A DNA stretch of 64,000 nucleotides from a virus. Lineage: Duplodnaviria > Heunggongvirae > Uroviricota > Caudoviricetes. The notes below the pieces were generated by a model. It searched no databases. It had not been told where the DNA came from and saw only the letters and a list, made by a program, of their open reading frames with translations. The stretch covers positions 5,531 through 69,530 of the IMG/VR virus record IMGVR_UViG_2823949316_000001; one strand, 5' to 3'. Position 1 is the stretch's first letter, and every line of letters starts with the position of its first letter. This document shows positions 5,417-54,141 of the stretch, one piece after another. A program made the position numbers and the translations under genes.

Positions 5417-5875
5417 ATGTCGTCTCTCAACCAAGTAAACCTGATCGGCCGCCTGGGGCAGGATCCCGAAGTGAAGTACCTGCCCAATGGCGACGCGGTC
5501 TGCAACCTGAGCCTGGCGACGTCCGAGCGCTGGAAGGACAAGCAGACCCAGGAGCAAAAGGAAAAAACCGAGTGGCATAAGGTGGTGGTGTTCGGCAAGC
5601 TCGCCGAGATCGCCGGCCAGTACCTGCGCAAGGGCGCCCTGGTCTACTTCCAGGGCAAGCTGGAAACTCGCCAGTGGGAGAAGGACGGCGAGAAGCGCTA
5701 CACCACCGAGATCCGTGCGAGCGAGATGAAGATGCTCGGCAACAAGGACGATGCCGGCGGTCGTGATGGCAACAATACCCAACAGCAGCCCCGCCAACAG
5801 ACGCCGCAGCGTACTGCCCCGCAGCAGCCGAAGGGCGGAGCGGCTGACCAATTCGACGATGACGTGCCGTTCTGA
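5417..5875 (+). CDS. ssb: Single-stranded DNA-binding protein
   Basis: OB-fold N-terminus ([21 protein letters not shown]...[12 protein letters not shown]...), Gln/Pro-rich linker, canonical acidic tail DDDVPF. Confidence 0.9.
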
Positions 5876-5896
5876 CACGGCAACATCGACAACAAC

Positions 5897-5920
5897 AAAG
5901 GGGCCTCTGGCCCCTTTCCT
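5897..5920 (+). terminator. Rho-independent terminator after ssb
   Basis: GGGGCC-TCT-GGCCCC stem-loop followed by TTTCCTT. Confidence 0.55.
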
Positions 5921-23600: not shown

Positions 23601-23736
23601 AGCCCCGCAGCAAGGCACCTTTCGTCGTGACGGCACACTGGCGCCATCGCAACCGCCAGATGATGCAAGTGTGACCGACGACTCCTTCCACCACCGACTG
23701 GGCGATGCCCGGGCCATCTACGAAGGCACCCATGGC

Positions 23737-26955: not shown

Positions 26956-28134
26956 TTGAAAAAGTCCAATGATTTGCAGCGTGCTGAGTACCAGCACCCG
27001 TTCAAGAAAGCGACTGACGAGCAAGTCATGGAGTGCATACGTGCAAACCTGACCGGCAAGCAGGCGGCCGCCAAACTGGGTATCCATGAGCGCGTCTACT
27101 TCTCCCGCAAAGCTGCGTTGGTGAAGAAGGGCTTCAGCCCTGAGCACGACATGGTGCACACGGTGCCTGACGGCTTCCTGGTGAAGGGCGTCAGCACCTA
27201 CTACGACGTGGATGGCAAGCCGCGCGGCCAGTGGGTCAAGAGCCAGGTCGACCGCGAGCGCCAGATCGAGCTGCTGCGCGAGGCCTGCGAGGCCATGGTC
27301 GAAGAGCTGCCCAAGCTCAAGCCGCGCAAGGATAACGGCCAGTACCTGTCGCACCTGATGGCAACCTACCCGATCGGCGATGCCCACATCGGCATGCGCG
27401 CCTGGGCCGAGGAGACGCAGGGCCAGAACTGGGATCTTGAGATCGGTGAGCGGATTCAGTGCGGCGCGATGGCCGCCCTCGTCGAGATGTCGCCGCCAGC
27501 CGAGAAGGCGGTCATCATCAACCTTGGGGATTGGTTCCACGCCGACAACATGGAAGGCACGACCAGCCGTAGCGGGCACATCCTGGACATGGACGGCCGC
27601 TACGCCAAGATGATCCGCGTCGGCATCAAGGTCATGCGCCAGTGCATCGAGTCAGCCCTGGGCAAGCACCGCACCGTGCGCGTCATCAACGTGATCGGCA
27701 ACCACGACGACACCGGCGCCATCTGGCTGGGCATCGCCCTGGGCCACATCTACGCCAACGAGCCGCGCGTCGAGATCGACAACAGCCCGGCGCCGTTCAT
27801 GTACGTCGAGCACGGCAAGGTGCTGATCGGCATGCACCACGGCCACACCTGCAAGCCCGACCGCCTGCCTGGCGTGATGGCTGCAGACCAGGCCAAGGCC
27901 TGGGGCCGCACCGAGTACCGCTACTGGTTCCTGGGCCACGTCCACCACCAGAGCGTCAAGGAATACGCCGGTGTCACCGTCGAGTCGTTCAACACGCTGA
28001 CCGCCAAGGACGCGTATGCTGCCTGGGGCGGCTACCGCGCGCAGCAGAACATGAAGTGCATCGTCATGCATTCGGAGTTCGGCGAAGTCGCGCGCCACAT
28101 CGTCAACCCGGCCATGCTCGAAGGCGCGGCCTGA
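26956..28134 (+). CDS. Calcineurin-like metallophosphoesterase with N-terminal HTH-like region (392 aa)
   Basis: Motifs GDAHIG, GDWFH, GNHDD, GMHHGH, GHVHH in canonical order. The 5' end of the gene is lower GC. Confidence 0.7.
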   Translation: MKKSNDLQRAEYQHPFKKATDEQVMECIRANLTGKQAAAKLGIHERVYFSRKAALVKKGFSPEHDMVHTVPDGFLVKGVSTYYDVDGKPRGQWVKSQVDRERQIELLREACEAMVEELPKLKPRKDNGQYLSHLMATYPIGDAHIGMRAWAEETQGQNWDLEIGERIQCGAMAALVEMSPPAEKAVIINLGDWFHADNMEGTTSRSGHILDMDGRYAKMIRVGIKVMRQCIESALGKHRTVRVINVIGNHDDTGAIWLGIALGHIYANEPRVEIDNSPAPFMYVEHGKVLIGMHHGHTCKPDRLPGVMAADQAKAWGRTEYRYWFLGHVHHQSVKEYAGVTVESFNTLTAKDAYAAWGGYRAQQNMKCIVMHSEFGEVARHIVNPAMLEGAA

Positions 28135-28872: not shown

Positions 28873-29163
28873 ATGATATCGAGCTTCCGAGATGCCTGGC
28901 TGCATGAGTTCTACGTCAACGGTACCGGGCACCGGCTGATCCCTGGCGCTATGGAAGGGGCTCTGGCCAGGAAGCTGGACATCATCCGCTTCGCCACGAC
29001 CGAGGGCGATCTGCGGGTACCGCCCGGGAACCGGTTCGAGCACCTGCACGGCAAGCTGGCCGCCTACTGCTCGATCCGGGTCAACAAGCAGTACCGCCTG
29101 ATCTTCCGCTGGAACGACGGCAAAGCGAGCGACGTATACCTGGATCCGCACACGTACCGGTGA
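28873..29163 (+). CDS. higB: HigB-like (RelE/ParE superfamily) toxin
   Basis: 96 aa. C-terminal ...RVNKQYRLIFRWNDGKASDVYLDPHTY matches the HigB/killer-protein pattern (..WRITF.F.NGDAY.L.Y.DYH). Confidence 0.7.
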   Translation: MISSFRDAWLHEFYVNGTGHRLIPGAMEGALARKLDIIRFATTEGDLRVPPGNRFEHLHGKLAAYCSIRVNKQYRLIFRWNDGKASDVYLDPHTYR

Positions 29164-29168
29164 GAGAC

Positions 29169-29474
29169 ATGATCGAGACCAACCGCAAGCCCACGACTGT
29201 CGGCGAGATCCTGACCGCCGAGTTCCTGGAGCCGATGGAGCTGACCCAGACCGACCTGGCCCGGGCCATGGGCGTGCAGACGCGCCTGGTCAACGAGCTG
29301 TGCCGCGATCGCCGGGCCGTGACCGCGGACACCGCCCTGATGCTGGCCGGCGTGTTCGGCACGTCGCCTGAATTCTGGCTCAACGCCCAGCAGGCCACCG
29401 ACCTGTGGGAGGCCATGCACGACGAGAAGCGCCGGCAGCGTATTGCCCGGGCGCGGCCGCTGCAGGCTGCCTGA
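29169..29474 (+). CDS. higA: HigA-like XRE-family HTH antitoxin
   Basis: ...ELTQTDLARAMGVQTRLVNELCRDRRAVTADTALMLAGVFGTSPEFWLNAQ... Overlaps the higB stop (GTG at 29160 or ATG at 29169). Confidence 0.7.
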   Translation: MIETNRKPTTVGEILTAEFLEPMELTQTDLARAMGVQTRLVNELCRDRRAVTADTALMLAGVFGTSPEFWLNAQQATDLWEAMHDEKRRQRIARARPLQAA

Positions 29475-36704: not shown

Positions 36705-36928
36705 GCGGGACAAGGGTGTTAATTGTCGATGGATGTTCGGCCGCATACCTCGCACGCCTGATCGGCGATCTTACGGAACGTGAAGTAGGGTTCGTGCACG
36801 GCAGCAAATCGGCGCCCGCGCCTCGTCCTGGCGGCATGCTTGGCCTCGCCCCGCTTGATCAGGTTGCCGAAGTGCGGCCTCCGAGTGGATCAGCCGGCCC
36901 GCGCGACCGCTGGGGCAAGGTTCGCTGA
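36701..36928 (+). CDS. Hypothetical protein (75 aa)
   Basis: GTGA-coupled. 3' part of ORF 36596..36928. Confidence 0.35.
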   Translation: MSGTRVLIVDGCSAAYLARLIGDLTEREVGFVHGSKSAPAPRPGGMLGLAPLDQVAEVRPPSGSAGPRDRWGKVR

Positions 36929-37260
36929 TGGCCGTCCTCAACAAGCACCATCACGGCGGCCAGATCCCGCAAGGCGCGGTCAACATCATGCGCGGGACGC
37001 TGTTCGGCAACCCGTTCGTGATCGGCCGCGACGGCGATCGCACCGAGGTGGTCGAGAAGTACCGGCAGTATCTGTGGAAGCGGATTCGCGAGGACTACAC
37101 CTTCATGAATGCCGTCTACAAGCTGCACGGCCGCGACCTGTGTTGCTGCTGCGCACCGGCGGCCTGCCACGGGCACGTACTCGAGCGGGCCGCTGCCTGG
37201 CTGGAGCTGCGTTCGCGCCCAGCCGAAGAAAATCAATCAGACGCGCCCGCCGGGCGCTAG
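36928..37260 (+). CDS. Hypothetical protein (110 aa) with GNPF...C..C..CH motif (DUF4326-like)
   Basis: TGATG-coupled. ...LFGNPFVIGRDGDRTEVVEKYRQYLW...CCCCAPAACHGH... Confidence 0.5.
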   Translation: MAVLNKHHHGGQIPQGAVNIMRGTLFGNPFVIGRDGDRTEVVEKYRQYLWKRIREDYTFMNAVYKLHGRDLCCCCAPAACHGHVLERAAAWLELRSRPAEENQSDAPAGR

Positions 37261-37723: not shown

Positions 37724-37968
37724 GCTACCAACTCGAAGAAGCTGCTGCACTGCTGGATAAGGAGCTGCCAGACTGGTCGTGGTCATTCACGCGCATCCGC
37801 AACCCTGGCCACGCGGTAAGCCCGTTCGGCGAAGGGGTCGGGCTCGATCTGCTTGGCCCTGATGGAAAGCTGCGCGTGTACCAGAAGCACGGAACCTCAG
37901 CATTGGAGGCTGCGCGGCGGGCCATACCGCGCGCTCGTGCGCGCCTTGCTGGCGACTCCGGTGCTTGA
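37720..37968 (+). CDS. Hypothetical protein (82 aa)
   Basis: GTGA-coupled ORF-track protein. Confidence 0.4.
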   Translation: MSYQLEEAAALLDKELPDWSWSFTRIRNPGHAVSPFGEGVGLDLLGPDGKLRVYQKHGTSALEAARRAIPRARARLAGDSGA

Positions 37969-38016
37969 TGACCAGATGCCAAGTCAGGGGCTCAGCCTCC
38001 TGATCGCCTACTGACG

Positions 38017-38045
38017 CGCCGCCTACAAGGGCGGCGTTGTCGTTT
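38017..38045 (+). terminator. Rho-independent terminator (GCGCCGCC-TACAAG-GGCGGCG + TTGTCGTTT)
   Basis: Follows the gene at 37968 and directly abuts motif copy 8. Confidence 0.55.
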
Positions 38046-38063
38046 CGGGCGCTGGTAGGGCGC
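38041..38063 (+). repeat. TTCGGGCGC-N5-GGGCGC family motif, copy 8 (GTTTCGGGCGCTGGTAGGGCGCG)
   Basis: Heads the 240-nt structured leader of the 1295-aa gene. Confidence 0.5.
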
Positions 38064-38215
38064 GCGAGATGTTGTTGCGCGCAGGCTCAGCGGGACGTTA
38101 TGATGAGTTCTCTTTTTTGAATAACCATTGCTTTGGAGGGTCGCATCATGAAGCGCGATGAACACGATGACTTGTAGCAAGCTCGACACCGGCTTCGGTG
38201 AAAGCTGACTCCACT

Positions 38216-38246
38216 CAAAAAGCCCGCCGATGCGCGGGCTTTTTCA
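38216..38246 (+). terminator. Intrinsic terminator/attenuator hairpin inside the leader of the 1295-aa gene (AAAAAGCCCGC-CGAT-GCGGGCTTTTTCAT)
   Basis: Perfect stem + T5, 40 nt upstream of the ATG at 38286. Preceded by a 9-codon ORF (MKRDEHDDL, 38150-38179) and a CACCG-GCTT-CGGTG hairpin in a lower-GC leader. Confidence 0.55.
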
Positions 38247-38285
38247 TGGGCGGCGCGCCACCCGTCGTGATTCCACAATGGGCAC

Positions 38286-41200
38286 ATGACCACTATCGTG
38301 CCCACGTCTATGCATCGCCAAGTCCTGCTGATCAAAGCCCAGGGTGATTTCAAGCACTCTGGAAAATACTTCCTGCAGAACGGGCGGTGGCATAAATTGC
38401 ACCCGGACAAGCCGGCGCCGAAGGGCGCGCCAGTGGCGGCCCACCCGAAGGCCGCCGGTAACCACGCGCCTGTGGCGCACTTCACCGACGACGAGTGGCA
38501 GAAGCTCAAGCTGCCAGCCGAGAACAGCAACGCCGGCACCTTCAACAAGCAGCTCGAACAGCTCAAGCAGCTGAGCGACGCCGGCGACGTGACCGGCATC
38601 CTCGGCATGCAGCTCGGCACGAATACCTACGGAAAAAAGCTCTCGACGATCGCCAACCACCTGCTCGGCCTGCACGGCAGCGAGCACAAGGTCGCGCCCG
38701 GGCAGAAGGCTGGCGAGCATGCGGCTGTGCAGCAGGCGCCGGCTGAGCACAGCGCAGCGTCACCGGCCACCGAGCCCAAGGCGGAGGAGAAGCCAGCCGC
38801 CCCGGCCGAGAAGCCAGCGGCGAGCAAGCCTGACGCCATCGCCAAGTTCCAGGCCTCGCATGCGAAGCAAGGCACACCATCGACAACGGTCGATGGCAAA
38901 GACTGGTTCGTGGTCGGCACTGGCACCACCAATGACGAAGGCAAGGTCTACGCGCACCTGGCGAGCAAGACCGAAGGCCAGGTTCAGAAAAACGGCTTCG
39001 TACCGAAACAGATGGCCGACTGGATCGACCCGGCGACGATCAGCGACCCGAAGAAGACGGCAGCTGCTGCAGCATCGAAGGCGACCGGCTTGCCCATGCC
39101 CGCCTTCGTGGAAGGCAAGACCACCACTGGGGTGGTCAGCTACTACGAGGCCCAGGCCCAGAAAATCCTCGACATGGCCGCCGCCGGCGACGTGGAAGGC
39201 CTGGCGGCCATGAAGGAAGACGGCCTGAAGCCGAACAGCAAAGGCAAGGTCAGCAACACCTTCAAGGGCAAGACCGAGAACAGCAAAACGCTGCTGGCGC
39301 TGCATGCGCAGGCGGTCGTGCATGCCAAGGGTGGCGCCACCGCGGAACAGCCGGCACCAGCGGCCGAGGCCAGCACCCCTGCGCCGGCCGAGCCTTCGCC
39401 GGCCGAGAAAGTGAAGCAGGCCACGCAGGCAGCCACCGCTGCCGTGGCGCAGACGCCAGAGCACCAGGAGGCGGTCGCGATCGCCACTGCCAGCCTGGCC
39501 GGCTCGAAGGTCTCCCAGATCCCGTGGGACAGCCAGCTGCTGCCGGACAGCAACAAGAACGCAAAGAGCCACAACAAGCAGGTCGCGAAGATCCAGGCGA
39601 TGGCCGAGGCCGGTGACCTGGCTGGGCTGGAGGCGCTGAAATTCGGCACCAACACCTACGGCAAGAAGCAGGAGAAGCTGAAGCAGCTGGCGATCGCCGC
39701 GCTGCAGGAGGACGCCGCAGCGCCTGTACCTGCTGCCGCACCTGCGCCTGCCGAGAAGAAGGGCTACGACAAGTACGGCATCTTCGACAGCCTCACGAGC
39801 GACATCGACACTGCCGCCAGCGGCGGCGATGCGTCCACGCTGAAGGACATCGAATCCTACCTGAATACGCCGGCCCACAAGAACGAGCCCGGGCTGGACG
39901 CGATCAAAAAATATCTGGATAGGGCAAAGGCGTCCGTGGCGACACCGGCGGCTCCTGCCGCAGAGCAAGGCCCCAAGGAAGGCGACACCAAGCAAGGCGC
40001 CGATGGCATGCTCGTGTTCAAGGACGGCCGCTGGCACAAGCAGGCCGAGCCGGCAGCAGCCGCTCCTGAGCCTGCCCCAGCCCATCCGATCGACGCAGTC
40101 CCGATGCCGGAGCTCACCTTCTCGAGCGCCGCCAGCAACGCGAAGGTGGCGGCCGCCCTGGAGAAGCTGAAGGAACAGATCAAGGCGGAAGGGCCTGGCG
40201 CGCTCAAGGGCGTAACCAAGCACATGAAGAGCAAGGGCAAGTACATCGTCAGCCTGCCCGGCACATACGGCAGCCTGAAGGTGTACGGCTACGAGCACGC
40301 GCCCGACCATGCTGGCACCAAGGTGCACGCCTACATCGAGGCACTGAAAGCTGCAGCAGGCAAGCCCAGCAAGGCCCCCGCGAAAGCCAAGGCCAAAAAT
40401 CCTGTCGTTGACGCCGATGGCATCCAGTCCATGGACAGCTGGAAGAAGACCGGGGAGCAGGCCGGCTCGAACCCAGGCGGCAAGTTCAAGGACGAGAACG
40501 GCGTCGAGTGGTACTGCAAATTCCCGTCCGACGAGGATGTCGCCAAGTCCGAGGTGCTGGCCGCGAAGCTCTACGCTGTCGCCGGCGTGATCGGCCAGGA
40601 CGCGAAGCTGATCAAGAAGGACGGCAAGCTGGGCATCGCTTCCCGCTGGACGACCGTGAGCAAGGCTGCGCCAAAGGATCTGGCCAAGGCCGCGGGCGCG
40701 CAGTCCGGGTTCGCCGTCGACGCGTGGCTCGCGAACTGGGACGTCGTCGGCATGGGCTTCGACAACCTGCAGGTCGGGCCGGATGGCAAGGCCGTCCGCG
40801 TCGATGCCGGCGGCTCACTCACCTACCGCGCCCAGGGCGGCAAGAAGGCGTTCGGCGCCACCGTCGCCGAGATCGACAGCATGCGCGACGCGAAGGTCAA
40901 CGCCCAGTCGGCGGCCGTGTTCGGCAGCATGACCCAGGCCGACCTGACGGCATCCGTGGCGAAGGTGGCGGCGATCCCTGATTCCGCCATCAAGAACCTG
41001 GTGGAGCTGCACGGCCCAGGCGATGCGGCAGAGCGCAAGGCGCTGGCTGACACTCTGATCGCCCGCAAGAACGACCTGATCGCCAAGTATCCCAAGGCTG
41101 CCAAGACGCCGAAAAAGCGCCTTGACCCGAACAGCCTGCCGGTCGATCCGGATCGCCTGCCGAAGGCGCACGACTTCAACAACTGGCTGGGCGCCGGCAA

Positions 41201-42173
41201 GCCTCTGTCGTCGCAGCCGCACGTCAACGCCGCGAACATGGCGGTTGAGCAGGAGCTGCTGGCGCTCGCCAAGACCGGCAACCTGACCAAGCTGAAAGAC
41301 TTCCAGTTCCACGCCATCGACAAGGCCACGGGCAACCAGACCGGCCAGCTGATCCCGATCGCCGAGCATCCGTCAAAGCACGTCGTTCAGCTGCACGCCG
41401 ACCTGGTGATGGCCCTGGACGAGATCGCCAACCCGCCGCAGCCCCTGAAGGTCTTCCAGGAGACCGACGTCGGCACGATCGACCAGCTGGCCGCGGCGCT
41501 GCCGTCGAAGAAGTTCGGCACCACCGTCACCTCGGTGCACTCGAACGAGAAGCTGGGCTTCTGGGTGGTGCTGGGCACGGCGCACGGCGCAGCGAAGTTC
41601 AAACCGTCCAAGGTGATGGACTATTCGAGCGCGGCGATCGCGGCGGCGAAAGAGAAGTTCCAGCAGGCCAGCCACCTGGCCAAGCACTTCATCTACTCGG
41701 TGCAGGCATCCGGCAGCTACAACGACCTGTTCCGCGCCGGCAAGTCGCACGATCACGCCGGCAACAAGCTGTCGGACGTGGCCAAGGCCGCGCTCGAGCA
41801 CGCGACCACCATGCCGGAAGGCACCAGCTTGTACCGCTGGCAGTCGATACCTGACGACATGGTGAAGAAGATCCTGGACGCGCCGGACGGCACTGTCTTC
41901 CAGGCCACCGGCCCTATGTGCACCTCGTACCACCCAACCGGTACGGCAGGGTTCGGCAAGCACCGCGTGACCGTGCGCTACGCCAATGGCGCCAAGGCGG
42001 TAGAGAGCTTCGCATCCGGGAAGTTTTCCGGTGAAAAAGAGGTGACCACGCTGCCGAACTCGCGCTTCGTGATCCTCAAGAAGGAGATGGTGCCTGACGT
42101 CGAGCACGGGAACCCGGGCGGCAAGCGCCTGGAGCTGGAGGTGCTGATGTTACCTCCCGATATGGGCCTGTGA
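38286..42173 (+). CDS. 1295-aa polyvalent protein: N-terminal tandem repeats (GTNTYGKK-type), Ala/Pro-rich linkers, central atypical-kinase-like domain, C-terminal R-S-ExE mono-ADP-ribosyltransferase-like domain
   Basis: Uninterrupted 3.9-kb ORF. About 45-aa repeats ...AGDVTGILGMQLGTNTYGKK... / ...AGDLAGLEALKFGTNTYGKK..., plus degenerate copies. Kinase-like motifs GSNPGGKFKDENGVEWYCKF (Gly-rich loop + Lys), DAWLANWD (D-x4-N), VRVDAGG (DFG-like). C-terminal LYRW (Arg), CTSY (STS-like), SGEKEV (ExE) at ART-typical spacings. Confidence 0.8.
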   Translation: MTTIVPTSMHRQVLLIKAQGDFKHSGKYFLQNGRWHKLHPDKPAPKGAPVAAHPKAAGNHAPVAHFTDDEWQKLKLPAENSNAGTFNKQLEQLKQLSDAGDVTGILGMQLGTNTYGKKLSTIANHLLGLHGSEHKVAPGQKAGEHAAVQQAPAEHSAASPATEPKAEEKPAAPAEKPAASKPDAIAKFQASHAKQGTPSTTVDGKDWFVVGTGTTNDEGKVYAHLASKTEGQVQKNGFVPKQMADWIDPATISDPKKTAAAAASKATGLPMPAFVEGKTTTGVVSYYEAQAQKILDMAAAGDVEGLAAMKEDGLKPNSKGKVSNTFKGKTENSKTLLALHAQAVVHAKGGATAEQPAPAAEASTPAPAEPSPAEKVKQATQAATAAVAQTPEHQEAVAIATASLAGSKVSQIPWDSQLLPDSNKNAKSHNKQVAKIQAMAEAGDLAGLEALKFGTNTYGKKQEKLKQLAIAALQEDAAAPVPAAAPAPAEKKGYDKYGIFDSLTSDIDTAASGGDASTLKDIESYLNTPAHKNEPGLDAIKKYLDRAKASVATPAAPAAEQGPKEGDTKQGADGMLVFKDGRWHKQAEPAAAAPEPAPAHPIDAVPMPELTFSSAASNAKVAAALEKLKEQIKAEGPGALKGVTKHMKSKGKYIVSLPGTYGSLKVYGYEHAPDHAGTKVHAYIEALKAAAGKPSKAPAKAKAKNPVVDADGIQSMDSWKKTGEQAGSNPGGKFKDENGVEWYCKFPSDEDVAKSEVLAAKLYAVAGVIGQDAKLIKKDGKLGIASRWTTVSKAAPKDLAKAAGAQSGFAVDAWLANWDVVGMGFDNLQVGPDGKAVRVDAGGSLTYRAQGGKKAFGATVAEIDSMRDAKVNAQSAAVFGSMTQADLTASVAKVAAIPDSAIKNLVELHGPGDAAERKALADTLIARKNDLIAKYPKAAKTPKKRLDPNSLPVDPDRLPKAHDFNNWLGAGKPLSSQPHVNAANMAVEQELLALAKTGNLTKLKDFQFHAIDKATGNQTGQLIPIAEHPSKHVVQLHADLVMALDEIANPPQPLKVFQETDVGTIDQLAAALPSKKFGTTVTSVHSNEKLGFWVVLGTAHGAAKFKPSKVMDYSSAAIAAAKEKFQQASHLAKHFIYSVQASGSYNDLFRAGKSHDHAGNKLSDVAKAALEHATTMPEGTSLYRWQSIPDDMVKKILDAPDGTVFQATGPMCTSYHPTGTAGFGKHRVTVRYANGAKAVESFASGKFSGEKEVTTLPNSRFVILKKEMVPDVEHGNPGGKRLELEVLMLPPDMGL

Positions 42174-42207
42174 TGCTACAATACCTGCAAATCAGTGAGA
42201 TGCGACC

Positions 42208-42705
42208 ATGACCGACCCACGTGAAATCGAAGGCAGCCCCGAGCGGGCAGCCGATCGCGGCCGAGCCGAAGACCTCGGCTTCAGCATGGATCCGCGCCCG
42301 TCCCTGGGGAACGTGGACGTGGTTCGCGGCCTGGTGTCCGAATTCGGCTCGGCGATCGTGGGTGTGCGCAAGGACTACCACGAGGACAAGCTGACCGGCG
42401 AGCAGGCCCAGGAGCGCGTTCGCGAGCTCGCCCGCGAGTACGGCGACATCATCCTCGGCCGCAGCGAGAAATACTTCGCGCTGCCCTGGAATGACCCTTC
42501 GCGCCTTGGTCGACGCATCAAGCTCGTAGTGCCGGCAGCCGAAGGCGTCAGCGACCCGGGCGAGCTGCTGTTCGTGACGATCGGCACAAGCCTGATGGCC
42601 ATCGGCAAGGCGCACGAGGAAGAGCGCCTGTCCGACGCAGATGCCGAGCGCCACACCAAGGACATGCTCGAAGACACGGCCAGCCTGATCCTGGGGCATC
42701 GCTGA
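42208..42705 (+). CDS. Hypothetical protein (165 aa) immediately downstream of the polyvalent protein; candidate immunity/chaperone partner
   Basis: ORF-track protein 35 nt after the 1295-aa gene. Stop overlaps the NUDIX gene start (TGATG). Confidence 0.55.
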   Translation: MTDPREIEGSPERAADRGRAEDLGFSMDPRPSLGNVDVVRGLVSEFGSAIVGVRKDYHEDKLTGEQAQERVRELAREYGDIILGRSEKYFALPWNDPSRLGRRIKLVVPAAEGVSDPGELLFVTIGTSLMAIGKAHEEERLSDADAERHTKDMLEDTASLILGHR

Positions 42706-43499
42706 TGGTGCAGGTACTGGCCAAGGCCCGGGTGAAGGGCTACGCGAAAAAGGACGGCACCTACGTCAAGCCGCATGACCGGAAGGAGGCGCCGGCCGCG
42801 GCGCGCCCCGAGCAGAAGCAGCTGCGCCTGCCTACCGAGACGGACGAGATTTTGCATCATCACCCCAAGGCCGGGGAGAACGGAGCCCAGGTCGTGTTGA
42901 AGAAGCCCAGCCACCCGAGCGCGCCCAGCACCTGGCACAGCCCGACCGCCGTGGCGACCTTCGTACCTGACGGCGACGTGCCGCTGTCGATCAACGGCGT
43001 CCGGCTCAGCCCCTGGAAGGATCACCCGACCACCAATGAGGGCTGGGATTACGTCGACGGCGTCAACGACGACCTCTGGGAGCCGGCATTCATCCTGCCA
43101 CCCGGTAAGAAGGCGGCCAGCGGCGTGGTCATCGAAGAGCCTGATGGGCGTGTGTGGTTGATCCACCCGACCAACCAGTTCGGCGGGTACCACGCCAGTT
43201 TCCCCAAGGGCACGGCCGAGCCGGAGCTGTCGCTGCAGGCGAACGCCATCAAGGAGGCGTTCGAGGAGTCAGGCCTGAAGGTCGAGATCACCGGCTTGCT
43301 GGGGGACTACGAAAGGACAACGTCTGTAGCTCGAATTTACACAGCCAGGCGCGTAGGCGGAACGCCAATTGCGATGGGCTGGGAGTCGCAAGCTGTCAGC
43401 CTTTGCCCTGTCGAACACCTCTATGAGCTGCTGAATGTTTGGGCTGATCACGGAATAGCTGAAGCGATCGGCGCCGGGCCGATACCGAAAGTAAAATGA
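42705..43499 (+). CDS. NUDIX hydrolase with basic N-terminal extension (264 aa)
   Basis: Nudix box GGYHASFPKGTAEPELSLQANAIKEAFEESGLKVEI (GX5EX7[RK]EuXEEXGu pattern, Lys in place of Arg). Confidence 0.7.
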   Translation: MVQVLAKARVKGYAKKDGTYVKPHDRKEAPAAARPEQKQLRLPTETDEILHHHPKAGENGAQVVLKKPSHPSAPSTWHSPTAVATFVPDGDVPLSINGVRLSPWKDHPTTNEGWDYVDGVNDDLWEPAFILPPGKKAASGVVIEEPDGRVWLIHPTNQFGGYHASFPKGTAEPELSLQANAIKEAFEESGLKVEITGLLGDYERTTSVARIYTARRVGGTPIAMGWESQAVSLCPVEHLYELLNVWADHGIAEAIGAGPIPKVK

Positions 43500-44137
43500 A
43501 CGTAGTCAGCCGAGCAGAAGCACGCGAGCAGGGCCTAAAGCGCTACTTTACTGGGGCGCCTTGCAAGCGCGGACACATCGATGAACGCTTCACTGCCTCT
43601 ACGAGATGCGTCTCGTGCAACGCGATCATCTGTGCCGGATGGAAAGCCGGGAACAAAGACCTGAAGGATGAGCTTGATCGCGAGTACCGGAGCAACAATC
43701 GCGAGAGGCAGAAGAAAAATTCGTCCGATTGGTACAGCCGGAACCGCGACCTCACCATTGAGAGAGCCCGCCAGCATGCCCAGAAGTCGCCGGAGGCTCA
43801 GGCAAAGAAGAAGCGGGAGTGGAAATTCAGGAATCCTGATAGCTCCACGTTTCACTCCGCACTGCGTCGAGCCAGGAAAAGCGCGGCAATGCCAGCCTGG
43901 TTCGGCGAGCTTGACGAGTTCGTATGGGATGAGGCTGCTGAGCTCGCCATCCTGAGACGCGCTGCTACTGACATCAGCTGGGCGGCTGATCACATGATCC
44001 CGCTAGCTTGCAAAAAGGCCTGTGGGCTGCACGTCTGGAATAACTGCCAGGTGATCCCTGCGTACCTGAATGGACGCAAGGGCAACAAGCTGATCCTCAC
44101 TGAGCCGGACGAATGGCTTGCACGTATAAGCAAGTAA
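43496..44137 (+). CDS. HNH endonuclease (213 aa)
   Basis: Cys-rich N-terminus. C-terminal ...AADHMIPLACKKACGLHVWNNCQVIPAYLNGRKGN (H-N-H/N). ATGA-coupled. GC content is lower than neighbours. Confidence 0.7.
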   Translation: MNVVSRAEAREQGLKRYFTGAPCKRGHIDERFTASTRCVSCNAIICAGWKAGNKDLKDELDREYRSNNRERQKKNSSDWYSRNRDLTIERARQHAQKSPEAQAKKKREWKFRNPDSSTFHSALRRARKSAAMPAWFGELDEFVWDEAAELAILRRAATDISWAADHMIPLACKKACGLHVWNNCQVIPAYLNGRKGNKLILTEPDEWLARISK

Positions 44138-44246: not shown

Positions 44247-44600
44247 ATGTGGATCTGTTTAAACAATGCTTTCCTGTCGATCATCGAGCCCGTCAAGGGC
44301 GGCGACAAGCTGCGCGTTCGCGCTCGCCGCAAGGGTGACATCGAGGCGGTCTTCCCGGGCGCCAAGGTCGAGCGCACCCCGGGCCGTGACTATCTCTACC
44401 GCGCCGAGCTGCCGCGCGAGCAGGTGGTCGCGGCCATCGCCAGCCAGGTGGCCGGCATCAGCTACCCGAACTTCAAGGACAGCGTGAAGAACAAGCCCCT
44501 GCACGATGCCTATGCCCGCTTCTGGGGCATCATGGCCAACCTGCAGGAGCTGCGCCCTTACTCGACCACCAAGCGCCGCGGCCAGGGAGCGTTCCTGTGA
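44247..44600 (+). CDS. Hypothetical protein (117 aa)
   Basis: ORF-track protein with GAGG RBS. Stop overlaps the MTase start (GTGA). Confidence 0.5.
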   Translation: MWICLNNAFLSIIEPVKGGDKLRVRARRKGDIEAVFPGAKVERTPGRDYLYRAELPREQVVAAIASQVAGISYPNFKDSVKNKPLHDAYARFWGIMANLQELRPYSTTKRRGQGAFL

Positions 44601-46246
44601 ACGCCGTCGTAGGCCAGGTGACTGGCGAAATCATCGAGGACGTGTCCGAGTTCTTCGCGCCGATGTCGGCTGACTTGGTGGACAGCCTGATCGGCCAGTA
44701 CAACGCCGCCCGCGGCAACGTCGAGGCCCTGGCGGCTGCCGTGCGCGCCGGCCAGAACGCCTCGGTGCTGCACTACTTTGTCGAGGGCAACGTGCGCGAA
44801 GAGCGCTACACCCTGCCGAAGACGGTCGAGGCCCTGTTCCGCACCGAGGGCGCCATCGCTCAGCTCAACGCCGACTTCTGGAACCGTGCGCTGCGCCTGA
44901 CCGACGTGCTCGACTACATGCCGCAGAAGCGCCGCGACGAGTGGTTCGAGCAGATCCGCAACCCGGAAGGGCGCAAGGCCGGCCGGCACACCAGCGACAC
45001 GGAGCTGCCGCCGCTGCCTGAGTTCGAGGAAGCCACTGTGCGCTCGACCCTGGCCGGCCTGCTGCACAACCGTGCCCAGTTCCTGGCCGAGCGTGTCGAC
45101 GGCATCTTCCGCGCGCTGAGCCGTGCCCACGTGACCAACCAGCCCCAGGGCTTTGGCAAGCGCATGATCATCGCCAACGTGTTCGGCTACCAGACCCACG
45201 GCCACATCAACGACCTGCGCTGCGTGATCGCCAAGTTCATGGGGCGCGACGAGCCGAAGCACGGTGCCACTGACCCAGTGATCAAGGCCGCCCGCCGCCA
45301 GAACGGCCAGTGGATGAACGTCGACGGTGGGGCTCTCCGGATCCGTGTTTATGGCGGCGTCGGTACCGCGCACCTCGAGGTGCACCCGGACATGGCCTGG
45401 CGCCTGAATGCCATCCTGGCCAGCCTGCACCCCCTCGCTATCCCGGCCGAGTTCCGCACCAAGCCGAAGCGCGTGAAGAAGATCAAGGACTTCGAGCTCT
45501 TCGACCGTCCGCTGCCGTTCGCGGTGATCCATCTGCTGGCAGGCATGCGCCAGGTTCGTGAGCGCATCGAACCAGCCTATCCGGAGCGCTACCGCGACGT
45601 GCCGAACGCGCTCAGCTGGGACTACGGCCAGCACGAGAAAGCGGCAATGGCGGAAGCCGAGAAGGTGCTGATGTCCATCGGCGCGGTGAAGGAGAAGCAC
45701 TACTGGCAGTTCGACTACAACCCGCAAGAGGTGCTTGATCAGGTGGTGTGCTCCGGCTGCATCCCCGACCACAAGTCGCACCAGTTCTACCCGACCCCGG
45801 CGTCAGTGGCCGAGAAGGCGATCGAGCTGGCCGAGATCCAGCCAGGGCATCAAGTGCTGGAGCCGAGCGCCGGCCAGGGTGGTCTGGCTGACCTGATCCC
45901 TGAACTTGCCTTCACCAGCTGCGTCGAGATCAGCCCGCTGCACTGCCAGATCCTCAAGGCCAAGGGCCACAACGTGATCGAGGCCGACTTCCTCAAGTGG
46001 CGCGGGATCGGCGCGTTCCACCGGGTGGTGATGAACCCGCCTTTCAGCGAGGGCCGCTGGCAGGCGCACCTGCAGCACGCCGCGACCATGCTCTACCCGG
46101 GCGGCCGTCTCGTCGCCATCCTGCCTGCCAGCGCCAAGGGCAAGCAGGTGCTGGAAGGCTTCGACCTGCAGTGGTCGCCGGTGATGGAGAACCAGTTCGC
46201 CGGAACGAGCGTGGACGTGGTGATCCTGACCGCTACCCGCCTGTAA
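44597..46246 (+). CDS. Gamma-class N6-adenine DNA methyltransferase fused to an N-terminal ~350-aa domain of unknown function (549 aa)
   Basis: C-terminal FYPTP ... VLEPSAGQGGL (motif I) ... VVMNPPFSEG (motif IV, NPPF) in gamma-class order. Confidence 0.8.
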   Translation: MNAVVGQVTGEIIEDVSEFFAPMSADLVDSLIGQYNAARGNVEALAAAVRAGQNASVLHYFVEGNVREERYTLPKTVEALFRTEGAIAQLNADFWNRALRLTDVLDYMPQKRRDEWFEQIRNPEGRKAGRHTSDTELPPLPEFEEATVRSTLAGLLHNRAQFLAERVDGIFRALSRAHVTNQPQGFGKRMIIANVFGYQTHGHINDLRCVIAKFMGRDEPKHGATDPVIKAARRQNGQWMNVDGGALRIRVYGGVGTAHLEVHPDMAWRLNAILASLHPLAIPAEFRTKPKRVKKIKDFELFDRPLPFAVIHLLAGMRQVRERIEPAYPERYRDVPNALSWDYGQHEKAAMAEAEKVLMSIGAVKEKHYWQFDYNPQEVLDQVVCSGCIPDHKSHQFYPTPASVAEKAIELAEIQPGHQVLEPSAGQGGLADLIPELAFTSCVEISPLHCQILKAKGHNVIEADFLKWRGIGAFHRVVMNPPFSEGRWQAHLQHAATMLYPGGRLVAILPASAKGKQVLEGFDLQWSPVMENQFAGTSVDVVILTATRL

Positions 46247-48206: not shown

Positions 48207-48932
48207 ATGTCGGCTCCACCACTTCTCAAGCGTTTCCCCGCCAACACAGTCGGTCGCGATTTCGCGGTCGGCGATATCCACGGCCATTTCACCCGCCTGC
48301 AGGCCGCCCTGGACGCAATCGGCTTCGACCCTGCCGTCGATCGCCTGTTCTCGGTCGGCGACCTGGTCGACCGCGGGCCAGAGTGCGAGGAGGTGATCAA
48401 GTGGCTGAACAAGCCCTGGTTCCACCCCGTGCGCGGCAACCATGACGACTACGTGTGCCGGTACGACACGTGCGACATCGGCAACTGGCTGCACAACGGC
48501 GGCTCCTGGTTCCTGGGTCTGCCCAGCCTGGAGCAGGCCAACTACCAAGTCATGTTCAACGAGCTGCCGATCGCCATCGAGGTCGAGACGCCGGAAGGCC
48601 TGGTCGGCCTGTTGCATGCCGACTGCCCATTCCCATCCTGGTTCGAGCTCCAGTTCGAGCTGACTGGTGCGACCGAGCACAAGCGCCTCAAGTTGGTGAA
48701 GAACACCTGCATGTGGTCGCGCAACCGCATCGAGTTCGGCGATGCCAGCGGCGTTGCGGACGTCCGCGCGGTAGTCTGCGGCCACACGCCAGTGCGGCAG
48801 CCTGTTGTTCTCGGCAACGTGTACCACATCGACACCGGCGGCTGGTTCCCGGACGAGAGCGGGCACTTCACGCTGCTCGACCTGCAGACGCTGGCGGCAA
48901 CACCACCGATCCCTGCGAAGCTGGAGTGGTGA
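48207..48932 (+). CDS. Lambda-type Ser/Thr protein phosphatase (PPP family), 241 aa
   Basis: GDIHGHF, GDLVDRGPE, RGNHDD, GHT motifs in order. In-frame ATG (MSAPPLLKRF...) in ORF 48141..48932 with GGCAGAAAGG RBS. Confidence 0.8.
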   Translation: MSAPPLLKRFPANTVGRDFAVGDIHGHFTRLQAALDAIGFDPAVDRLFSVGDLVDRGPECEEVIKWLNKPWFHPVRGNHDDYVCRYDTCDIGNWLHNGGSWFLGLPSLEQANYQVMFNELPIAIEVETPEGLVGLLHADCPFPSWFELQFELTGATEHKRLKLVKNTCMWSRNRIEFGDASGVADVRAVVCGHTPVRQPVVLGNVYHIDTGGWFPDESGHFTLLDLQTLAATPPIPAKLEW

Positions 48933-53928: not shown

Positions 53929-54141
53929 TCAAAGCAGAACGAGCGGCTGCTTCGGCACCAACTGATCAGCCAGCATGCGGCGCAGGATACGCTCATGCGG
54001 TGACTGGCTGACCTGCTCGTTCGCCCAAGCTTCCCAGTCGCTGCGCTTGCCGTACTCGGCGATGATGCGCCCGGCCTCGCCGCGGGCGGCCAGCCAGGTG
54101 TCCAGGCTCTTCTGGCGTTGTTGAGCGATGAGGGTCATCAA
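53929..54141 (-). CDS. Hypothetical protein (70 aa)
   Basis: ATGA-coupled to the MazG-like gene. Confidence 0.4.
   Translation of the reverse strand: MMTLIAQQRQKSLDTWLAARGEAGRIIAEYGKRSDWEAWANEQVSQSPHERILRRMLADQLVPKQPLVLL

Follow-up and report, generated by a model that had tools for sequence, protein, structure and literature searches.

A gene in a 64,000-nucleotide stretch of tailed-phage DNA (positions 5,531 to 69,530 of IMG/VR record IMGVR_UViG_2823949316_000001; hereafter the window) encodes a 1295-amino-acid (aa) protein that, by fold prediction, joins a protein kinase domain resembling CtkA of Helicobacter pylori to a C-terminal R-S-E ADP-ribosyltransferase (ART) domain. It is followed by genes for a small acidic protein and a NUDIX protein. 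Comparison with homologues leads us to think it moderately probable that the 1295-aa protein is a late-made, virion-packaged kinase and ART effector that, with its acidic partner and the NUDIX protein, modifies host proteins. The locus follows a strategy already known from phages, with a combination of domains that is undescribed; it is not a new kind of system.

The gene belongs to a Microvirga prophage, about 92.6 kb long, of a temperate phage with a contractile tail. The 165-aa acidic protein has an identical counterpart annotated on a 1.44-Mb contig of Microvirga lupini, and the related Pseudomonas putida phage Dolphis encodes an integrase; the phage is therefore temperate and seen as a prophage, as had been proposed from the window's sequence alone (the original prediction). 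A Logan contig of 92,590 bp encodes the identical 1295-aa protein, with Met9 taken as its start, and the phage's relatives are contractile-tailed phages of about 90 kb that infect Aeromonas, Pseudomonas, Morganella, Yersinia and Escherichia. The single 3.9-kb gene that had been predicted is present as one uninterrupted open reading frame (ORF; Table 1), and its start at 38286 is backed by the fixed spacing of an upstream motif described below and by the conserved M(M)T N-termini of relatives. A single-sequence search of the PDB with the whole protein returned a low-complexity match only. The full-length protein has no significant family in Pfam, NCBIfam or PHROGs, so all inferences about it rest on domain-level work.

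We collected 120 homologues and aligned their C-terminal halves. The original prediction had pointed to an atypical-kinase-like segment with a glycine-rich loop, DAWLANWD and VDAGG. No Pfam, NCBIfam or PHROG family model matched this domain, and HipA_C gave a faint match (E 0.04) in only 2 of 21 homologues. A profile of the domain found nothing among PDB sequences, so structure prediction was needed. An AlphaFold2 model made from the homologue alignment (predicted local distance difference test, pLDDT, 89.9; predicted template-modelling score, pTM, 0.86) has the two lobes of a kinase fold. Its nearest structural match is CtkA, and the other matches include the lipid or sugar kinases PI4K-IIalpha, MavQ and Fam20 xylosylkinase as well as protein kinases. 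The set of kinase residues is complete: a glycine-rich loop (GSNPGG, 727-732), the beta3 lysine K745, the alphaC glutamate E756, catalytic D812 and N817 (D812-AWLA-N817-W-D819) and the metal-binding D840-A-G (D840-AGG). These positions are invariant in 21 diverse homologues and, S728 and P730 excepted, at least 98% conserved over 118; in the model they sit on the expected secondary-structure elements, a placement made at the level of elements. With very high confidence at the level of fold, the model identifies residues 705-960 as an intact-looking CtkA-like protein kinase domain, a member of the protein-kinase-like superfamily with the atypical CtkA, CotH, PI4K-II and HipA-like kinases, and at that level the earlier call was right, its motifs being conserved in homologues.

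The C-terminal domain had been called ART-like from an R, S-T-S and E-x-E signature, and here too the fold was right. In a Foldseek search, the AlphaFold2 model of residues 1105-1295 (pLDDT 91.0) gave 144 PDB matches at E<=1e-3, headed by VIP2 (1qs2, E 2.6e-10), C3bot (TM-score 0.69-0.74), C3cer, Plx2A, CDTa and Tre1, with iota toxin also matched. The model has the split beta-sandwich with an N-terminal helical subdomain. A sequence profile searched against the PDB reaches Vip2 (E 1e-3) with the arginine, S-T-S and E-x-E motifs in register, the window's YRW, GPMCTS and GEKEV lying opposite YRW, GYMSTS and SEKEI. The motif residues are R1184 (LYRW), C1212-T-S1214 and E1250-K-E1252. Conservation of the catalytic arginine and glutamates, proposed beforehand as a check, holds fully for the glutamates, which like S1214 are invariant among 23 diverse homologues, and in part for R1184, which is retained in 19 (lysine in three, glycine in one). 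PF03496 (ADPrib_exo_Tox) matches 20 of these 23 weakly, with a best E of 1.8e-4. The window ART is a divergent subfamily of R-S-E ARTs, and its modelled assignment to the C3/VIP2 type carries very high confidence at fold level. The E-x-E form of the last motif is associated with arginine-specific enzymes, and from it the predicted ART probably uses arginine as its acceptor. AlphaFold2 and Foldseek, the tools chosen to challenge the prediction, found both the kinase and the ART fold.

Kinase and ART occur together well beyond this phage. Of 1.84 billion cluster representatives (50% identity), the kinase profile matched 5,337 at E<=1e-3 and 2,125 at E<=1e-30. The 150 best representatives are mostly 1,000-2,500 aa long, some with several kinase copies; 92 of the 150 end in an ART of the window type and 33 in one of the canonical Dolphis type. 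Among the remaining tails, five of seven tested match PF03496 or DRAT, and in the other two ART motifs are visible by eye. The pairing thus survives replacement of the ART subtype, and within these 150 an R-S-E ART almost always comes after the kinase. Nor is the pairing lost when the gene is split: Gordonia phage Forza encodes a MuF-like protein (gp75), a portal (gp77), a kinase that has a ParB-like motif (gp78; E 5e-45) and, as a separate gene, an ART (gp80; PF03496 E 7e-18). Relatives of the 1295-aa protein add WGR, GNAT, NUDIX and ParB-like domains and reach five kinase copies, so that, as in polyvalent proteins, at least two effector domains share one polypeptide whose architecture varies among relatives. 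Giant members of the family include P0241 (3416 aa), P0299 (7004 aa), P0281 (3040 aa), gene 47 of ECML-606-1 (>2245 aa) and an ORF of DSL-LC01 (about 3289 aa). Some of the giants hold two to five kinase-domain copies and others add WGR, GNAT or ParB-like domains; in them the modular make-up of this effector is expanded to an extreme.

A pairing that is near-obligate across ART subtypes suggests coupling between the two domains. The kinase-like domain might then not be a protein kinase at all: it could regulate the ART, or its substrate could be a nucleotide or of ADP-ribose type, within a single kinase-ART-NUDIX pathway. Control of an ART by a kinase fold has a precedent in SidJ, which regulates the SidE ART. 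A three-way fusion with NUDIX on the Pseudomonas juntendi plasmid p2463-1 (described below), the lipid and sugar kinases among the structural neighbours, and weak BFVD matches to proteins named Nudix and 2'-5' RNA ligase point the same way. However, those weaker BFVD matches have poor TM-scores, the canonical phosphotransfer residues are all invariant, the Forza kinase and ART are on separate proteins, and CtkA, the best structural match, is described as a Ser/Thr kinase (PMC5536186). We regard this alternative as unlikely. The same near-obligate pairing across swapped subtypes, with the p2463-1 fusion, makes a sequential chemistry conceivable, in which the ART adds ADP-ribose, the NUDIX protein trims it to phosphoribose and the kinase adds or primes a phosphate, leaving a mark that resists host ADP-ribosylhydrolases. 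Such a capsid-delivered phage counterpart of Legionella SidE/SidJ chemistry strikes us as improbable.

Downstream of the big gene, the predicted order of a 165-aa protein, a TGATG-coupled NUDIX gene and an HNH gene was found as described. The NUDIX start overlaps the stop of the 165-aa gene as TGATG (42703-42707), the NUDIX protein passes Pfam (PF00293, E 4.6e-12, 46.5 bits vs a cut-off of 21.1) and the HNH gene matches a PHROG endonuclease VII. Set against the consensus G-x5-E-x7-R-E-U-x-E-E-x-G-U, the Nudix box (GTAEPELSLQANAIKEAFEESGL) retains the E-x2-E-E core and both glycines, with lysine in place of arginine and the first glutamate displaced by one position. The NUDIX protein is 47-75% identical in five distant phages. 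A fourth gene, p117, encodes a protein that is 36-77% identical in Dolphis, ST4, ECML-606-1, Yen8-01 and Mecenats66. The order of big protein, ~160-aa protein, NUDIX and p117-like protein is kept in nine related loci (ST4, Dolphis, Jeremy, Mecenats66, fHe-Yen8-01, ECML-606-1 and three metagenomic contigs), and this, together with the gene fusion on p2463-1, upholds the proposed coupling of NUDIX to the big gene. Our confidence that kinase, ART, partner and NUDIX form a linked set, as gene order suggests, is high.

Within this set, part of the locus has its own history. Compared segment by segment with Dolphis and Jeremy (Jeremy is Dolphis-like at this locus), identity is 64-65% for the kinase, 79-80% for NUDIX and 78-79% for p117, and 38% for the linker, 31-35% for the ART and 23-26% for the small protein. 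With ST4 the figures are 62% for NUDIX, 74% for the ART and 71% for the small protein. Across the nine loci the identity of the small protein follows that of the ART, not that of NUDIX. These segment-wise identities show that a single block, made up of linker, ART and small protein, is passed on and swapped whole. By profile, the small proteins of the loci belong to one family (E 1e-11 to 1e-50), with isoelectric points (pI) of 4.0-5.0 vs 8.9 for the ART. The family of the 165-aa protein numbers at least 139 proteins of about 165 aa, has no Pfam relative and no informative PDB match, and its member always stands after the gene that ends in the ART. Such a pattern makes the small acidic protein a candidate cognate binding partner of the ART (an inhibitor, immunity protein or chaperone). 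Bxa-Bsi-BAH is a published parallel for an ART with a cognate partner (PMC11699363).

How the protein would reach its targets is suggested by its homologues. In the GenBank record of Yersinia phage fHe-Yen8-01 (OR620963.1), gp129, a 2146-aa homologue of the big protein, carries the note 'phage particle associated protein', and gp130 and gp131, confirmed homologues of the 165-aa protein and of NUDIX, are named 'particle associated protein'. The P. juntendi plasmid p2463-1, a 65.6-kb element, has phage head genes, in the order portal, minor head protein, a 1466-aa NUDIX, kinase and ART fusion, an acidic protein, protease and capsid genes. The fusion protein combines NUDIX (E 2e-81 to the window NUDIX), a GSNTYGKK-type repeat, the kinase (E 8e-68) and a Dolphis-type ART, and the acidic protein after it belongs to the family of the 165-aa protein. 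The Forza kinase and ART genes adjoin portal and MuF-like genes, and in BFVD a protein named 'portal protein' contains the same kinase fold (E 9e-17). Because of the Yen8-01 particle notes and these head-module contexts, virion packaging is the best-supported delivery route; what the original prediction had kept as a fallback has become the leading reading, supported indirectly. Head-packaged phage ARTs and polyvalent proteins are published concepts (PMC5512222, PMC9503650), and ARTs and Nudix proteins are predicted to be often packaged in contractile-tailed phages (PMC9503650).

The start of the gene is consistent with this route. The motif GTCGTGAY-N3-A-N3-T (GTCGTGAYNNNANNNT) has six exact copies in the window vs 0.15 expected (at most one in shuffles), all on the plus strand, at 23624, 38264, 48964, 54901, 58366 and 62313; copies with one mismatch lie at 5760, 26905, 63040 and, on the minus strand, 12933. 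Four of the exact copies begin precisely 22 nt ahead of a start codon (the copy at 38264 for the big gene, 48964 for TerL, 54901 for the portal and 58366 for the head maturation protease), and none of the four has a Shine-Dalgarno sequence between motif and ATG. In Dolphis the motif occurs 22-23 nt before the portal, protease, ART and terminase starts, and several of its tail and baseplate genes have the motif in the intergenic gap ahead of them; in ST4 and Yen8-01 it precedes the ART gene. The motif is a candidate promoter. Its N-A-N3-T part ends 6 nt before the ATG and would suit a -10-like element with leaderless transcripts. A sigma-70 scan gave no plus-strand promoter near the big gene. 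The simplest reading of the upstream sequence is that a terminator closes the preceding unit and that the big gene has its own putative late-type promoter common to head genes, which fits a packaged protein. We place moderate confidence in late expression and virion packaging as suggested by these comparisons. Separately, the near-copy at window position 5760 (GTCGTGAYGGCAACAA) is conserved at Dolphis 49767, inside the 3' part of the Dolphis ssDNA-binding protein gene, and may be an internal promoter for downstream genes.

We propose the following course of events. The intrinsic terminator would shield the big gene from upstream transcription, and the gene would be transcribed late from the promoter-like element common to the terminase, portal and head-protease genes. 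Packed in the head, the big protein, its acidic partner and the NUDIX protein would reach the next host together with the DNA. In that host the kinase would phosphorylate host proteins and the ART mono-ADP-ribosylate them, probably on arginine, so that host machinery might be redirected or defences blunted as infection begins; T4 Alt and T7 Gp0.7 each do one part of this. Up to delivery, the acidic protein would most likely stay bound to the basic ART, whether to inhibit it or to chaperone it, and NUDIX would be a co-delivered enzyme on ADP-ribose or NAD-type substrates rather than an antagonist. As to the actual targets and the chemistry of cooperation, our confidence is low.

Several points weigh against this course of events. 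The enzymatic activity, target and packaging of the 1295-aa protein are all putative. The particle note is the depositors' annotation on a homologue that is about 30-55% identical, and we found no underlying publication. The full protein contains no MuF (PF04233) or portal domain, and MuF gave two faint matches only (E 0.03), inside the ART region of homologues. Some 6.8 kb separate the gene from the terminase downstream of it, and its neighbours are methylase and accessory genes, not those of the head module. Two of the six exact motif copies (23624 and 62313) fall within the 3' parts of ORFs. As for the ART, the catalytic arginine is lysine or glycine in 4 of 23 diverse homologues, the S-T-S motif reads C-T-S (its first serine being Cys1212), and the domain scores below the PF03496 gathering threshold (10.9 bits, E 0.29, vs 23.4). 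The rule that links E-x-E to arginine is a generalisation, and R-S-E ARTs that modify DNA or attach RNA exist.

Some of these points would suit an unpackaged intracellular device for host takeover or phage conflict, the picture of one writer with nearby erasers (NUDIX, a PPP phosphatase and other hydrolases) drawn by the original prediction. The big gene stands in a long same-strand accessory block, which ends at the large terminase and includes HigB/HTH, methylases, DUF4326, a DUF4942 methylase and the PPP phosphatase; the absence of a MuF or portal domain fits as well. The lambda-type phosphatase at 48207 is genuine, with its Pfam Metallophos match and all three expected motifs; it sits immediately upstream of the terminase, as it does in L009 and Dolphis, and is a possible counter-activity. 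The other erasers fared worse. At 26956-28134, where a metallophosphoesterase had been proposed, there is a sub-threshold Metallophos_2 match only, and for the supposed MazG at 54138 Pfam gave nothing on either strand at E up to 5. NUDIX seems to go together with the ART; with a homologue annotated as particle-associated and a fusion to the writers elsewhere (p2463-1), it fits a partner better than an antagonist, and the writer-and-erasers picture is unsupported or overstated. Against an unpackaged device stand also the particle annotations on homologues of all three proteins, the head-module position of kinase and ART genes in Forza and P. juntendi, and the motif that the big gene has in common with the terminase, portal and protease genes. 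We consider it an unlikely explanation.

A prophage polymorphic toxin would account for other features of the locus. In that scheme, serving bacterial competition or superinfection exclusion, the toxic part is the ART, against which the 165-aa protein would give immunity by binding and NUDIX a second, enzymatic immunity. Such a role has been proposed for MuF toxins and shown for Bxa with Bsi and BAH. The phage is temperate, and the ART and adjacent small acidic ORF are exchanged as a cassette. Yet what is conserved as an invariant core is a kinase and no trafficking domain, one lineage has NUDIX and toxin fused, and the homologue of the putative immunity protein is itself annotated as particle-associated. 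Nor can NUDIX enzymes fully strip protein ADP-ribosylation, which counts against enzymatic immunity of this kind. There are published parallels: a Bxa prophage ART is neutralised by a binder and a hydrolase (PMC11699363), and small ORFs follow MuF toxins in 89% of cases (PMC5576092). The idea overlaps with that of a packaged effector, which may also need an inhibitor; as a separate explanation we judge it quite unlikely.

The attenuated leader of the original prediction survives as hairpins, not as attenuation. The preceding gene ends at 37968, leaving a gap of 317 nt. The hairpin nearer the ATG is stable in both minimum-free-energy and centroid folds, and a similar hairpin followed by T's precedes the big gene in L009, L010 and Mecenats66, not in Dolphis, ST4 or L008. 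The overall fold stability of the gap is modest (z -2.1), terminator counts in the region overall are not above chance, and Rfam gave sub-threshold matches only (RNAI, Trp_leader, rsmX). A terminator followed by the head-gene motif fits this sequence better than attenuation. Between the two hairpins lies a 9-codon mini-ORF with GGAGG (38149-38178, MKRDEHDDL), and L009 has a comparable 5-codon mini-ORF (MKALA) at about 5890-5910; ours may encode a leader peptide, mark a small transcript or have arisen by chance. That the gap is a leader-peptide or riboswitch-type attenuator of read-through into the big gene is very improbable: the terminator 40 nt before the ATG, the mini-ORF with its counterpart and a weak Trp_leader match (22.9 bits against a gathering score of 41, E 0.03) speak for it, but no Rfam family reaches threshold, an alternative antiterminator pairing was not identified, stability is modest, Dolphis (gap of 35 nt), Yen8-01 (66 nt) and ST4 lack the long gap and the terminator, and the promoter-like motif intervenes between terminator and ATG. 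We also rejected a start-codon-sequestering hairpin (GTCGTGA with CATGAC), for which the portal, terminase and protease copies of the motif have no complementary arm.

The N-terminal part of the 1295-aa protein contains repeats, and Ala/Pro-rich linkers, noted before and evident on reading the sequence, join its domains. Repeats of about 45 aa in tandem had been predicted; there are repeats, but they are dispersed modules of about 60 aa, helical, in three copies that a profile seeded on residues 410-475 alone recovers, self-BLAST of the protein having found no internal repeats. Relatives hold one to six copies, mostly three, in the profile search. Against the PDB the module gave a weak, non-significant HEAT-like resemblance (a lyase, E 0.23), and the linker at aa 961-1104 had no sequence match there. 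A short basic motif recurs in the big protein at aa 29-43 (38370-38414, FLQNGRWHKLHP) and aa 576-589 (40011-40052, LVFKDGRWHKQ), and again in NUDIX at aa 9-27 (42729-42785) as KGYAKKDGTYVKPHDRK. Similar sequences are PRFPKGSPKGGQFKPKG, of which the P. juntendi fusion has two copies, and, in Forza gp78, HPRGADGRFIHKG; the motif might be a packaging or processing signal shared by co-packaged proteins.

Among the neighbouring genes, the HNH/endonuclease VII-like gene is absent from this position in ST4, Dolphis, Jeremy, L009, L010, Mecenats66 and Yen8-01, and L008 has a 226-aa ORF in its place. Without a counterpart in most relatives, it is probably an insertion, of a mobile homing type and outside the module. 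After p117 comes a 549-aa DUF4942 and N6-adenine-type methyltransferase (44597-46246; PHROG 6263, E 1e-219), which follows p117 likewise in ST4, Dolphis, Jeremy and L008-L010 and bears the GenBank label 'RE endonuclease'; its overlap with the p117 stop makes co-translation with the module probable. A DUF4326 protein is encoded about 1 kb upstream of the big gene, and just upstream in L009 too (36928-37260; Pfam E 2e-24). The DUF4326 rhodanese-phosphatase clade is predicted to process ADP-ribose-derived phosphates (Iyer et al. 2022, PMC9503650), and this protein may belong to the same NAD/ADP-ribose theme. The same accessory block holds a HigB-like toxin and HTH_3 antitoxin pair (28873-29474, from Pfam labels of the contig gene calls), and Dolphis has MazEF in a comparable region. 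PADLOC gave no match for the big protein, the 165-aa protein, NUDIX, p117 or DUF4326; the DUF4942 methylase alone matched, to methyltransferase models. With no defence-system match in PADLOC, we set aside a prophage defence system as a reading of the locus.

Table 1. Positions in the window of the features discussed in the text (aa, amino acids of the encoded protein).
Feature	Position	Strand	Remarks
Terminator-like hairpin after upstream gene	38016..38037	+	9-bp stem, 7 G-C pairs; in RNA fold
Strong intrinsic-terminator-like hairpin, AAAAAGCCCGC-CGATGC-GCGGGCTTTTT	38217..38246	+	40 nt before ATG
Promoter-like motif, GTCGTGAT-TCC-A-CAA-T	38264..38279	+	starts 22 nt before ATG, no Shine-Dalgarno between
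Gene for 1295-aa multidomain protein	38286..42173	+	stop codon included; uninterrupted ORF
Repeat module copy 1	38493..38669	+	aa 70-128, '...AGDVTGILGMQLGTNTYGKK...', jackhmmer domain E 3e-26
Repeat module copy 2	39135..39317	+	aa 284-344, divergent, jackhmmer domain E 1e-12
Repeat module copy 3	39513..39710	+	aa 410-475, '...AGDLAGLEALKFGTNTYGKK...', profile seed
Protein-kinase-like domain, CtkA-like	40398..41165	+	aa 705-960
Linker region inherited with ART	41166..41597	+	aa 961-1104
R-S-E ART domain, C3/VIP2-like	41598..42170	+	aa 1105-1295
165-aa acidic protein, candidate ART partner	42208..42705	+	pI 5.0; starts 34 nt past big-gene stop
264-aa NUDIX protein	42705..43499	+	Nudix fold aa 136-247 plus ~130-aa N-terminal extension
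HNH/endonuclease VII-like gene	43496..44137	+	PHROG 1035 E 5e-21; overlaps NUDIX stop
117-aa protein p117, function unassigned	44247..44600	+	fourth of conserved order; no family match
Lambda-type PPP Ser/Thr phosphatase	48207..48932	+	Pfam Metallophos E 2.3e-14; GDIHGH, GDLVDRG, GNHDD motifs

The original prediction had called this system undescribed. That is true in part: we did not find the CtkA-like kinase domain or its near-obligate pairing with an R-S-E ART described, but GenBank homologues are already labelled ADP-ribosyltransferase, and packaged ARTs and polyvalent proteins have been published. By function the closest likeness is to T4 Alt combined with a host-directed kinase after the manner of T7 Gp0.7. 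T4 Alt, the textbook case, is a head-packaged, injected mono-ADP-ribosyltransferase of the Alt/VIP2 R-S-E clade. The protein here is likewise a phage R-S-E ART with E-x-E, is probably made late, is proposed to modify host proteins at the start of infection and has a homologue annotated as particle-associated. It differs in its kinase and repeats, its temperate phage and its co-varying acidic partner, and it has no known capsid-targeting sequence. No sequence similarity to T4 was detected (tblastn at E<=1e-5 gave no T4-type phage). T7 Gp0.7, which phosphorylates host transcription and translation proteins and is made early and not packaged, is a functional analogy only, as a host-directed phage kinase, and none of the 50 best viral structural matches bears its name.

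Polyvalent proteins (Iyer et al. 2017) come closest in build, being large multidomain phage proteins of effectors and low-complexity linkers, and the WGR and GNAT domains of relatives add to the likeness. Virion packaging is their predicted delivery route (PMC5512222). The ARTs found in them by the 2017 survey are of the H-Y-[ED] type, not Alt/VIP2-type (PMC5512222), whereas ours is R-S-E; and their kinase family is a truncated Ser/Thr/Tyr kinase from phages of Verrucomicrobia, Chlamydia and Bacteroidetes (PMC5512222), whereas ours is full-length with a C-lobe and CtkA-like. MuF toxins and Bxa-Bsi-BAH resemble the locus in a C-terminal ART of a temperate-phage protein that is exchanged together with a small ORF (PMC5576092, PMC11699363). 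Lacking a MuF domain, the 1295-aa protein does not count as a MuF toxin; MuF is encoded by a separate gene next door in Forza and P. juntendi. Its conserved core is the kinase, and the second linked enzyme is NUDIX, not an ADP-ribosylhydrolase. CtkA itself (JHP940) is 17% identical to the kinase domain, with no sequence-level match; it is a stand-alone protein that acts on human cells, unlike this multidomain phage protein, and is carried on the tfs3 conjugative element (PMC5536186). We found no paper on this family in the literature on fHe-Yen8-01, Aeromonas phage ST4 or CtkA/CotH kinase-like phage proteins, and the Mecenats66 paper does not discuss the protein. Within a searchable literature that is incomplete, we did not find the CtkA-like kinase domain, its pairing with an ART, the co-swapped acidic partner or the NUDIX linkage described.

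The spread and partners of phage-delivered ARTs are known mainly from sequence surveys. The locus points to a very large kinase family without a family model (>5,000 clusters at 50% identity), to a swappable block of ART and small acidic protein, and to a NUDIX linked to them by order and fusion. Through the motif shared upstream of the big gene and head genes, the control of late genes in this group of phages becomes easier to approach. If the favoured reading of a packaged kinase and ART effector is true, the kinase domain would give annotators a missing domain model, and Dolphis and Aeromonas phage ST4 would be tractable systems for joint phosphorylation and ADP-ribosylation at infection onset. 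Many temperate contractile-tailed phages of Proteobacteria, and actinophages, would then inject a two- or three-enzyme protein-modifying device.

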